This document shows, one piece after another, positions 13,857 through 15,608 of a DNA stretch of 64,000 nt. The notes beneath the pieces are model-generated. The model did no database searches and had not been told where the DNA came from. It saw only the letters and a program-made list of their open reading frames with translations. The translations under genes were made by a program, and so were the position numbers. The DNA lies in NCBI GenBank assembly GCA_000165345.1, contig CM000434.1:768001-832000 (forward strand), read 5' to 3'. The stretch's first letter is position 1. Each line of letters opens with the position of its first letter.

Positions 13857-15029
13857 ATGGAAGATTGGCTTCCTGAGTGGGTAAAAATAGGAAACTATGA
13901 ATTGAGAGAAATATATATACCAAAGAGTAAAAAAGAGTTGGGAATATGCCAATATAATATATTAACTTCCGGTAATAAGTTGAAAAAAGATCACGAATGG
14001 TTTTTAGAGAATCGAATTGAGTATTCAAGAAAGAATGGGTATTGTTATTTTCATTTGGATTTAAGTTTTGGTGAGGTTAGAAATCCTCATTATTGGAGAT
14101 ATATTGGAATAATTAAGTTATATAAAAAAGTTCAAGGCTTACTTTCTGATCATAAAGAGCATAATTATTTGGTACTATATATGGATTCCGATACCATGTT
14201 TTCAAGATTTTCTGTAAGAATTGAGGATTTTCATGAAAAGATGAAAGATTCATTTCTATATCTATCAGTGGATGATAATTGTGAATTACAGCATTATTTA
14301 TTAAATGTTGGAGTCTTATTAATGTCTTTAAGAAGATTAGAGACATTAATATTTTGTATTCAAGTACTGGCTTTACAGAAGACTCAGTCTATACTATCTT
14401 ATTCATCAGAATGGAGTAGATCGGGTTTGAATGATCAAAACATTGTTATTTCTGTTTTAAATGATACAGGAAGGTTGGATATTGAGAATATACAAAGTTA
14501 TTGTTTGAGGAAGAAGAATTCATCTTGGTTGGATAATGAAGATCAGTGGATTAATTTGAACTATTCAAAGCAAAACAAAGGAGTAGTGGTTGTTCCCAGT
14601 TTATATTTGAACCAAATTATAAGGATGGATTATATAATGAAATCAAGCGAGTTAAAAACCAATCTTTGGTTAGAAAGGTCATGGATTATTCATTTTAGTG
14701 GATCTAATAGACTAGAACAATGCTTTATGATACAAAAACTTTGTTTAGATAGGATTAGAAAGTTCAAAACAAAGTATAATCATTATTTTAAGGAATGTCC
14801 AGAGAAAATGGAAGAATTGATGACCAAAAATGAACTTAAAAAGATTGAAACTCTATTTTCATTGAAGATGGATTCAAGTTTAGATCCTAATAACTATATT
14901 GGACAAAATTATTTGGTATGGATTAAAGATCTCGAACAGATAGATCTTGGAATAAGAAACTTAAGTAACAGATACTCCATTCTAATTAAAAGGTATGTTT
15001 TAATAAGAATAATAGAAAGGAAGTCTTGA
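13857..15029 (+). CDS. Putative GT34-family glycosyltransferase (Mnn10/Mnn11/xylosyl- or galactosyl-transferase-like). The gene may continue through two further exons to about 15457.
   Basis: The motif ...WRYIGIIKLYKK...HNYLVLYMDSDTMF matches the GT34 signature (K..L..wLWwMDSDalf, DxD). The first in-frame ATG is at 13857, because the track start at 13818 is a TTG. See the findings for the candidate extension and the missing N-terminus. Confidence 0.5.
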   Translation: MEDWLPEWVKIGNYELREIYIPKSKKELGICQYNILTSGNKLKKDHEWFLENRIEYSRKNGYCYFHLDLSFGEVRNPHYWRYIGIIKLYKKVQGLLSDHKEHNYLVLYMDSDTMFSRFSVRIEDFHEKMKDSFLYLSVDDNCELQHYLLNVGVLLMSLRRLETLIFCIQVLALQKTQSILSYSSEWSRSGLNDQNIVISVLNDTGRLDIENIQSYCLRKKNSSWLDNEDQWINLNYSKQNKGVVVVPSLYLNQIIRMDYIMKSSELKTNLWLERSWIIHFSGSNRLEQCFMIQKLCLDRIRKFKTKYNHYFKECPEKMEELMTKNELKKIETLFSLKMDSSLDPNNYIGQNYLVWIKDLEQIDLGIRNLSNRYSILIKRYVLIRIIERKS

Positions 15030-15608
15030 GAAAATTGAATATTAACTTTAATCTTTAATTACTATAAATTTTGCTATTTTAATATTGTGATTTCATTATT
15101 TTAGAATAATTAAGCTTCTAAAACTAAGTAGAACCAGACAATTCACTCAAAAATCAAAAAGAGAACTAGTAGGAGCAGTTCTACAATTCTTAGAGAATTC
15201 AAACAAATTTGGATTAATTTTTGAGAAACTATATCTCACAGGAATAGTAAGTTTATATAAAATCTTTTCTCTATTTTCCTCATTTTTCCAATTTATTTAA
15301 TTTTTCTTTTTATTCCCTCTTTCAGTCAAACAGAAGAACAATAAAGTATGAAGCAAAAAATGCTATTGAATTCTCTAATATATTCAACTTCTTTTCTCTA
15401 CTAAACAAATGCCCTAATAATTTTGAATATGAAAAAAAATTTACCTCAAAATTTTGAATCACGTTACCTTTTAAGATCACATAAAAATATCCGATACCTG
15501 CAGAATGCATGCATGCAACTGTGCATGCATGTGACCGGTAATGACATGAGAAAAAAATTTGAAGAAATATGGAAAAAAATTAAATAAATTTTATGTATTT
15601 TTTTTATT

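Follow-up and report, generated by a model that had tools for sequence, protein, structure and literature searches.

A conserved ATG-less frame upstream of the Cryptosporidium parvum gene cgd6_3350 probably encodes the signal anchor of a GT34-like glycosyltransferase

The gene cgd6_3350 lies on the forward strand of Cryptosporidium parvum chromosome 6, within a 64,000-nucleotide (nt) window (contig CM000434.1, positions 768,001 to 832,000) whose identity we established by protein search. Its public models begin at an ATG at position 13857 (Met13857; all coordinates are those of the window unless a locus is named). We found that the reading frame stays open upstream of this codon, contains no ATG, and encodes a hydrophobic, signal-anchor-like segment that is conserved throughout the Cryptosporidium genomes compared. 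The pattern of sequence conservation suggests that this upstream anchor is likely translated and that Met13857 is probably an internal residue. A first-pass annotation of the window had remarked on a missing N-terminal anchor and on two introns at the 3′ end of the gene; of these remarks, the one on the anchor alone could open up something new.

The N terminus is more important here than the introns, and public C. parvum models do not address the anchor. Cryptosporidium has a small glycosyltransferase repertoire, and the glycans of its surface and oocyst wall are studied as adhesion and vaccine targets. If the anchor is translated, the cgd6_3350 product would be a membrane-bound glycosyltransferase of the secretory pathway and not a soluble protein, and localisation predictions as well as the design of tagging and knockout constructs would change. 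A main-text literature search returned no paper on cgd6_3350, which is listed solely in a supplementary table of dN/dS (the ratio of non-synonymous to synonymous substitution rates) (PMC4637869). A search for Cryptosporidium GT34 found nothing relevant and no described enzyme.

A conserved hydrophobic segment is encoded upstream of Met13857

The upstream frame occupies 13728 to 13856 on the plus strand, in the register of the gene. It opens directly after a TAG stop codon (13725 to 13727), reaches the ATG at 13857 without an in-frame ATG, and encodes ...KIRKEYIVAGVILEWFVLFLLRCLGL...; its full translation before Met13857 is YFWDYLYYSFKIRKEYIVAGVILEWFVLFLLRCLGLSLEEIKV. A basic flank, KIRK, is followed by the hydrophobic, signal-anchor-like segment IVAGVILEWFVLFLLRCLGL (13776 to 13835). 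The frame is therefore present as the first-pass annotation had described it: open from 13728 to 13857, hydrophobic, and devoid of an in-frame ATG.

We compared 11 genomes: C. parvum, C. tyzzeri, C. hominis, C. meleagridis, Cryptosporidium chipmunk genotype I, L001 (a Logan assembly), C. canis, C. ryanae, C. xiaoi, L010 (an ENA metagenome contig), and C. muris. Two C. hominis assemblies were counted as one genome. All 11 have 34 to 74 open codons upstream of a WLP[EDS]W motif and no in-frame ATG before the anchor. Each also has a 17-residue hydrophobic window with a Kyte-Doolittle value of 1.9 to 2.6 (2.2 in C. parvum). By comparison, the best window of the annotated 469-amino-acid (aa) protein reaches only 1.47. 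In every orthologue outside the parvum clade, the hydrophobic segment stands directly before the conserved WLP[EDS]W motif.

An assembly problem, which had been raised as one explanation for the absent ATG, is excluded. The upstream stop codon and the missing ATG recur in independent assemblies and species: C. meleagridis has TAA as this stop, and C. parvum, C. tyzzeri, and the two C. hominis assemblies have TAG. The two independent C. hominis assemblies, together with C. tyzzeri and C. meleagridis, rule out an assembly error.

The upstream frame also evolves much like the annotated coding sequence. Identity to C. parvum over 13728 to 13856 is 99% in C. hominis, 92% in C. meleagridis, 88% in chipmunk genotype I, 64% in L001, and 59% in C. 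canis, with a single 3-nt indel. This level of conservation is like that of exon 1 and unlike that of the adjacent region 13611 to 13727 and of the introns. The dN/dS was 0.2 to 0.5 in the frame of the gene and about 0.7 to 1.5 in the two wrong frames, with an exception in one of the eight wrong-frame comparisons (C. meleagridis, frame +2, 0.21). Within the clade that carries Met13857, 11 of the changes in codons 11 to 43 of the frame (13758 to 13856) are synonymous and 8 are non-synonymous (P = 0.002, the neutral expectation being 25%), whereas codons 1 to 10 have no synonymous and six non-synonymous changes. Because the synonymous excess starts at codon 11, coding constraint begins at about the codons AAA-ATA (13758 to 13763). 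The Lys-Ile pair that they specify is kept in all 11 genomes as AAR-AT[A/T], with an A at −3.

A simpler reading is that Met13857 is the true and sole start in the C. parvum clade, that the protein has no anchor there, and that the upstream frame is either an untranslated leader under some other constraint or a recent relic. Met13857 is indeed the first in-frame ATG and is conserved within the parvum clade, and all models of C. parvum, C. hominis, C. meleagridis, C. tyzzeri, and chipmunk genotype I start at it. However, it is present in the parvum clade only. The residue at this position is Ile in L001 and L010, Leu in C. canis, Val in C. xiaoi and C. ryanae, and Arg in C. muris; starting at the following in-frame Met in L001 or C. 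canis would cost the catalytic domain conserved parts. Upstream codons 11 to 43 show their synonymous excess, and no indels, in the very clade that bears the ATG. In addition, the anchor is conserved as far as C. muris, the 469-aa model has no convincing hydrophobic segment of its own, and the known GT34 enzymes are type II membrane proteins. We regard a sole start at Met13857 as improbable. The first "M" of the database proteins P0003 and P0008 is in fact a TTG and a GTG, respectively, picked by a prokaryote-style gene caller.

Two points weigh against translation of the upstream frame. The evidence for it comes from few substitutions, 19 codon changes within the clade. Furthermore, three annotation efforts kept Met13857 as the start, and at least one of them (IOWA-ATCC) was manually curated against RNA sequencing (RNA-seq) data.

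Where translation of the anchor may begin

If the anchor is translated, the protein would begin upstream of Met13857 and take in the basic flank and the hydrophobic segment (about 13758 to 13835). With such an anchor, the cgd6_3350 product would be a secretory-pathway enzyme with type II membrane topology, resembling the GT34 enzymes. We slightly prefer a mechanism in which initiation would take place at a near-cognate codon of the conserved AAA-AUA pair (13758 to 13763). Initiation near this pair is the one model that fits all 11 genomes without extra assumptions. The pair coincides with the switch from a neutral-like to a coding-like substitution pattern, but AT-rich genes contain many Lys and Ile codons, and further near-cognate codons lie nearby. 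We put near-cognate initiation at or near the Lys-Ile pair forward tentatively. The narrower proposal, a genus-wide start at the AUA or AUU of the pair (13761 to 13763 in C. parvum) with no AUG before the anchor, is more doubtful still. If it is true, every current parvum-clade model would be about 32 residues short at the N terminus and would wrongly predict a soluble protein. A conserved non-AUG start, if confirmed, would also be a warning that annotation pipelines that choose the first ATG can miss signal anchors.

Near-cognate starts are established in several eukaryotic genes, including vertebrate TEAD1 (AUU) and EIF4G2/DAP5 (GUG) and the yeast GRS1 and ALA1 isoforms. On the non-AUG reading, cgd6_3350 would share with them a conserved AUG-less N-terminal extension, a purine at −3, and a conserved near-cognate codon. 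It differs from them in that its AUA is among the weaker near-cognate codons, and in that the non-AUG start is a proposal here. Several considerations count against such a start. Among the eukaryotes studied to date, AUA and AUU initiate translation weakly, and the prior for near-cognate initiation is low. The literature search found no precedent of non-AUG initiation in Cryptosporidium, and we know of no earlier documented conserved non-AUG start in the genus. Finally, an ATG at 13592, if it is in the transcript, would compete for scanning ribosomes.

The more ordinary solution is a tiny ATG-bearing 5′ exon, spliced into 13728 to 13790, that supplies the start of the anchor. Such exons are annotated in C. 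xiaoi (8 aa), C. ryanae (13 nt), and C. muris (20 aa). An ATG in good context with a strong donor 2 to 8 nt further on is present in L010 (ATGTTTGGC|GTAAAT), C. canis (ATGGA|GTAAAA), and L001 (ATGGGTGAAG|GTGAGA). Moreover, the spacer between cgd6_3350 and the neighbouring RPL32 gene is 915 nt, which is long relative to the reported mean intergenic length of 552 to 589 nt (PMC4637869).

However, the three annotated mini-exons are not homologous to one another. We enumerated all single-intron models of the form ATG plus GT...AG in six intestinal-clade genomes; each genome has some, and none is shared, so that no combination of ATG, donor, and acceptor is common to the six. The only single-intron model that C. 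meleagridis permits falls out of frame at the corresponding place in C. hominis. Between its in-frame TAA and the conserved Lys-Ile codons, C. meleagridis also lacks any AG, and the region 13611 to 13727 carries indels of 1 to 2 nt between C. parvum, C. tyzzeri, and C. hominis. The annotations that placed the two 3′ introns by RNA-seq added no 5′ coding exon, and in a large protein collection none of the 10 members of the 90% identity cluster has an N-terminal extension. The suggestion of a missing N-terminal transmembrane exon thus holds in one part, since the upstream segment is conserved and behaves like a signal anchor, and is unproven in the other, since an ATG-bearing 5′ exon was not located by the six-genome enumeration. 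We consider a spliced 5′ exon possible and only a little less probable than near-cognate initiation. Some other start mechanism is less probable again, below even a sole start at Met13857.

Two observations concern the same region in other species. In C. muris (locus L007, 3001 to 3100), the annotation joins an ATG-bearing open reading frame (ORF) to the anchor through a 35-nt intron, and a 30-nt GTAAGT...CAG stretch follows exon 2 (region 4489 to 4520). These 35-nt and 30-nt stretches are either very short introns or annotation devices that restore the frame. The second observation is an out-of-frame ATG that C. xiaoi, C. ryanae, and L010 have in common at one aligned position, just before the anchor (L006, 3125 to 3140; L009, 3170 to 3185; L010, 190 to 205). 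It spans NAT-GTN codons (Asn, His, or Tyr, then Val); the first base of the codon varies and the AT-G is kept. A stop follows immediately (ATG TTG TGA or ATG TAG). This ATG may be a coincidence or a minimal upstream open reading frame (uORF).

A conserved block lies farther upstream

Upstream of the anchor frame, a 39-nt block at 13572 to 13610 of the plus strand, GGAGAGGTGCATTGCATGCATTTTGAGATCTTGA, stands out by its cross-species identity. It contains the motif TGCATGCA and the ATG at 13592. Four of the five genomes compared are 89 to 97% identical to C. parvum over the block, and the flanks diverge. In C. canis, the identity is 65% overall, and the GCATGCATTT core is kept. The ATG at 13592 opens a uORF-like frame, MH[FL][EK]I..., of 20 to 36 codons, whose register relative to the main ORF varies by species. 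The block is probably a promoter or 5′-leader element and not a coding start, and the uORF-like frame looks incidental or regulatory.

We considered and rejected several ways of linking this region to the gene. As a start codon, ATG 13592 has no GT within 55 nt, and its distance to the main frame modulo 3 is 1, 0, 1, 1, 1, and 0 across the genomes. The region from 13611 to 13727 has its 1- to 2-nt indels even among the close relatives C. parvum, C. tyzzeri, and C. hominis. These indels break the frame; therefore, there is no long coding exon in that region. A micro-exon at 13679 to 13699, between a polypyrimidine-TAG acceptor and a GTAAGT donor at 13700, varies in length out of register, and its donor is not conserved: C. 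hominis has TTAAGT there, C. tyzzeri AATAAG, and C. meleagridis AAAAAG. On inspection of the sequence, we also rejected a ribosomal frameshift (+1 or −1) out of an upstream ATG frame, because the registers do not agree and a slippery site is lacking. We also considered U12-type or other non-canonical splicing of the conserved block and saw no match to the consensus.

Two introns extend the coding sequence to 15457

At the 3′ end of the gene, two GT-AG spliceosomal introns are removed, and the coding sequence runs past the stop codon at 15029 to 15457. Exon 1, the annotated first coding exon, extends from Met13857 to 14992 and ends in phase 2. Intron 1 (14993 to 15104, 112 nt) begins with the donor GTATGT (14993 to 14998) and ends with the acceptor TTTTAG. 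Exon 2 (15105 to 15246, 142 nt) consists of one base, which completes the split Arg codon AGA, and 47 codons, so that it ends at a codon boundary. Intron 2 (15247 to 15325, 79 nt) begins with GTAAGT (15247 to 15252) and ends with CTTTCAG. Exon 3 (15326 to 15457, 132 nt) has 43 codons and the TGA stop (15455 to 15457). All five features are on the plus strand. The joined exons are a multiple of 3 in length, contain no internal stop, and encode a product of 469 aa. Splicing adds a net 79 aa to the 390-aa unspliced ORF, as 90 new residues replace 11 read-through residues.

The splice model drawn in the first-pass annotation, with two in-phase introns that extend the gene, proved exact. All of its splice signals are present, but the donor of intron 1 is at 14993 and not at "about 14994," an error of one position. 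A supposed 1-nt inconsistency near 14995 was not reproduced; the ORF at 13857 to 15029 translates exactly to XP_627680.1 / EAK89958.1, so the discrepancy was a counting slip in the first-pass annotation. With the local base composition (A 0.40, T 0.36), open frames of 47 and 44 codons arise by chance with P values of about 0.013 and 0.019, and the earlier estimate of a few percent was fair. The lengths of the introns, 112 and 79 nt, are in line with the mean of 84 to 99 nt reported for Cryptosporidium introns, which have 22% G+C (PMC4637869).

The C-terminal addition is conserved in orthologues. Using tblastn, we matched exons 2 and 3 in eight other genomes (C. hominis, C. meleagridis, chipmunk genotype I, C. 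canis, L001, L010, C. xiaoi, and C. ryanae), with E values of 1e-10 to 1e-26 for exon 2 and with a conserved FxFFS..NKCP motif in exon 3. C. muris has a recognisable homologue of exon 2 with GTAAGT on either side. Across nine genomes, C. parvum plus eight others, the GT and AG sites of both introns are conserved. The intron 1 acceptor, ...TAG|A, is kept in six intestinal-clade genomes, and the position of intron 1 is kept in C. muris (AA|GTAAGT). The intron 2 donor is GTAAGT in eight of the nine (GTAGGT in C. xiaoi) and also at the homologous site in C. muris, and the intron 2 acceptor varies among CAG, AAG, and TAG.

Exons and introns differ sharply in how they evolve. Relative to chipmunk genotype I, exons 1, 2, and 3 are 85, 89, and 87% identical, and the sole indel is a 1-nt gap near the end of exon 3. 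In contrast, intron 1 is 65% identical and has three indels (4, 38, and 2 nt), and intron 2 is 63% identical, with frame-breaking indels of 2 and 5 nt. Exon 2 has no indels, and its dN/dS is 0.07 to 0.22. The dN/dS of exon 3 is 0.05 to 0.10 against C. hominis, chipmunk genotype I, and L001, and 0.68 against C. meleagridis. By these substitution and indel patterns, exons 1 to 3 evolve as coding DNA and the introns do not.

Two other ends of the gene have been deposited. In the first, the gene has a single exon that ends at TGA 15027 to 15029, and the downstream signals would be there by chance. This is the 390-aa model of C. parvum Iowa II, C. hominis UdeA01, and C. tyzzeri (389 aa in chipmunk genotype I), in which reading through intron 1 continues the ORF without interruption into the tail YVLIRIIERKS*. 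However, the eight other genomes keep exons 2 and 3, and C. muris keeps exon 2 as well, but the tail is not conserved. Two such open frames would arise jointly by chance with a probability of about 0.013 × 0.019, and the newer annotations, at least one of them built on RNA-seq, use both introns. The 3′ exons, their splice sites, and their substitution pattern therefore make an end of the gene at 15029 very unlikely. In the second, CAD98376.1 (444 aa), which comes from a deposited C. parvum chromosome 6 annotation, intron 1 is used and the last exon maps to an acceptor near 15613 in place of 15326 to 15457. However, exon 15326 to 15457 is conserved at the protein level in eight other genomes and has a low dN/dS in three of four comparisons. 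The CAD98376.1 exon overlaps, on the opposite strand, the 3′ end of a convergent minus-strand gene, and it is absent from all later annotations. It could be a minor isoform, but as the regular end of the gene it is just as implausible as the stop at 15029.

The introns are already annotated

The two introns are real but already known, and nothing at the 3′ end is new beyond the truncated orthologue models. The claim that they are unannotated is out of date: three C. parvum annotations carry the 469-aa model, as do annotations of C. meleagridis and C. hominis. Our spliced translation is identical to P0011 = QOY41220.1 (IOWA-BGF, cpbgf_6003350), WKS78449.1, and WRK32940.1 (CPATCC_0014920), and it differs by one residue from KAL5368213.1. 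The same 469-aa structure is found in POM84652.1 of C. meleagridis and KAL3127687.1 of C. hominis. The current cgd6_3350 models (QOY41220.1, WKS78449.1/WRK32940.1, and KAL5368213.1) thus share the exon-intron structure, the start at Met13857, and the stop at 15455 to 15457 with ours, but they leave out the conserved anchor-coding frame at 13758 to 13856. The IOWA-ATCC annotation carries the identical model, and according to Baptista et al. 2022 (PMC8744675), RNA-seq backs 100% of its introns. This is a general statement about that annotation and not one on cgd6_3350 in particular, so that its support for these two introns is indirect.

Besides the C. parvum Iowa II model, 3′ truncation affects the models of C. 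tyzzeri, chipmunk genotype I, C. canis, C. muris, and C. hominis (UdeA01 and TU502). For these orthologue models, we noted that the omitted exons are present in the species' own DNA (L002, 4282 to 4619; L005, 3968 to 4247; L007, 4288 to 4490; also L008 and L012). The C. canis models are 321 and 332 aa long and, for want of an ATG, additionally lack about 100 residues at the N terminus. In C. muris, the model (418 aa) ends at the unspliced end, and the C. hominis TU502 model has only 134 aa.

The product is distantly related to GT34 glycosyltransferases

The C. parvum protein had no match in Pfam, even at E ≤ 10. Without a match to PF05637 (GT34, the Gma12/Mnn10 family), it lies below the gathering score of that family, 23 bits. 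PF05637 matched four of eight orthologues weakly, with a best E value of 1.9e-4. When we searched 1.84 billion cluster representatives with a profile of the orthologues, just 37 proteins matched at E ≤ 1e-3. Among the matches were remote homologues, P0019 to P0035, with E values of 1e-46 to 1e-9. We scanned 10 from among the closest non-Cryptosporidium matches; of these, 8 matched PF05637 and no other family, and P0019 (28.9 bits) and P0021 (46.2 bits) pass the gathering score. Against PDB sequences, the eight-orthologue profile found no matches. A 20-sequence profile, searched against all PDB sequences, matched only XXT5 (E = 0.016) and XXT1 (E = 2.6), both with weak scores. The label "GT34-like" in the first-pass annotation is therefore apt as a distant relationship, in which remote relatives pass PF05637 and XXT5 and XXT1 are the sole PDB sequence matches.

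We then considered the predicted fold. The AlphaFold2 model rests on the 20-sequence alignment, as an eight-sequence alignment gave a predicted local distance difference test (pLDDT) score of 58.6, which was too poor. The core of the model has a pLDDT of about 85 to 97 over most of residues 1 to 335. The two top Foldseek matches were the glycosyltransferase of virus PBCV-1 (2P6W, E = 7e-7) and XXT1 (6BSU, E = 1e-6). Exon 1 holds the GT-A catalytic domain, including a DxD motif (YMDSDTM) at 14184 to 14192, whose aspartates D110 and D112 do not vary among the 20 aligned sequences. For the stretch from about residue 340 to residue 469, which takes in everything encoded by exons 2 and 3, the model predicts long helices with low confidence (pLDDT 32 to 60). 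Based on the model, exons 2 and 3 probably add a conserved helical region to the C terminus.

PF05637 includes the Gma12/Mnn10 α-1,6-mannosyltransferases and galactosyltransferases and the plant xyloglucan xylosyltransferases XXT1 and XXT5. Characteristic of GT34 are a DxD motif that binds metal and nucleotide sugar, a short cytoplasmic tail before the signal anchor, and retaining transfer of hexosyl or xylosyl groups from nucleotide sugars in α-1,6 or α-1,2 linkage. With XXT1 (6BSU) and XXT5 (9P3J), the cgd6_3350 protein shares the GT-A fold, the DxD motif, and the motif series N-x-G-V, D-Q, and H-F-S-G. The type II topology of the GT34 enzymes would apply to cgd6_3350 as well if the upstream anchor is translated. 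However, the protein is about 14% identical to XXT1, with a TM-score of about 0.5, and cgd6_3350 has an extra C-terminal helical region of about 130 aa, which comes partly from the two small exons. The N-terminal domain of the PBCV-1 capsid glycosyltransferase (2P6W, 2P72, and 2P73) is the best Foldseek match (TM-score 0.64, target-normalised). It is a minimal GT-A domain of about 200 aa with 13% identity, and it has neither an anchor nor a C-terminal extension. In the structural comparison, the likeness to the PBCV-1 enzyme is one of fold, not of family membership.

A fair description of cgd6_3350, as far as the sequence comparisons go, is a divergent GT-A glycosyltransferase with a DxD motif that is distantly related to GT34, its membership being transitive through intermediate sequences. 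Two points speak against a stronger statement: the link to GT34 is transitive only, with no significant Pfam match for the C. parvum protein itself, and the C-terminal 130 residues are modelled at a pLDDT of only 32 to 60. We hold the gene structure and the family assignment jointly with high confidence.

The locus is syntenic among Cryptosporidium genomes

The window has a G+C content of about 30% and is densely filled by long ORFs. The gene cgd6_3350 lies between the gene of ribosomal protein L32 (RPL32; 12529 to 12942, minus strand), which we identified from its ORF and at the protein level, and a convergent minus-strand gene. The gene order is SPX/VTC protein, RPL32, cgd6_3350, the convergent gene (about 320 aa), and NLE/WD40 protein. 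It is kept in all nine loci that cover both flanks; L001, L010, L011, and L012 were left out of this count, as their loci are too short. The members of the cgd6_3350 cluster bear the locus tags cpbgf_6003350 and CPATCC_0014920. The identity of exon 1 to C. hominis UdeA01, 98.2%, equals the value given for cgd6_3350 and CHUDEA6_3350 in the supplement of Isaza et al. 2015 (PMC4637869).

The convergent neighbour appears in the window as three ORF pieces (15609 to 15893, 16106 to 16243, and 16244 to 16681). Related loci have a single gene of 319 to 330 aa in its place (285 aa in L012, where the end of the locus cuts it). Therefore, this neighbour is probably also a multi-exon gene.

The motif GCATGCA occurs in 41 copies in the window, compared with about 3 expected, an excess of about 14-fold. 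The copies often form tandem TGCATGCATGCA runs, and sites or clusters are found at 2519 to 2526, 6213 to 6220, 15497 to 15535, 20520 to 20604, 31248 to 31267, and 48811 to 48833. One cluster, at 15506 to 15529, lies between the stop codon of cgd6_3350 (15457) and the 3′ end of the convergent gene (about 15609). GCATGCA is usually regarded as a promoter motif, and a position between two convergent gene ends is odd for such a motif. The cluster may mark a promoter of an antisense or non-coding RNA.

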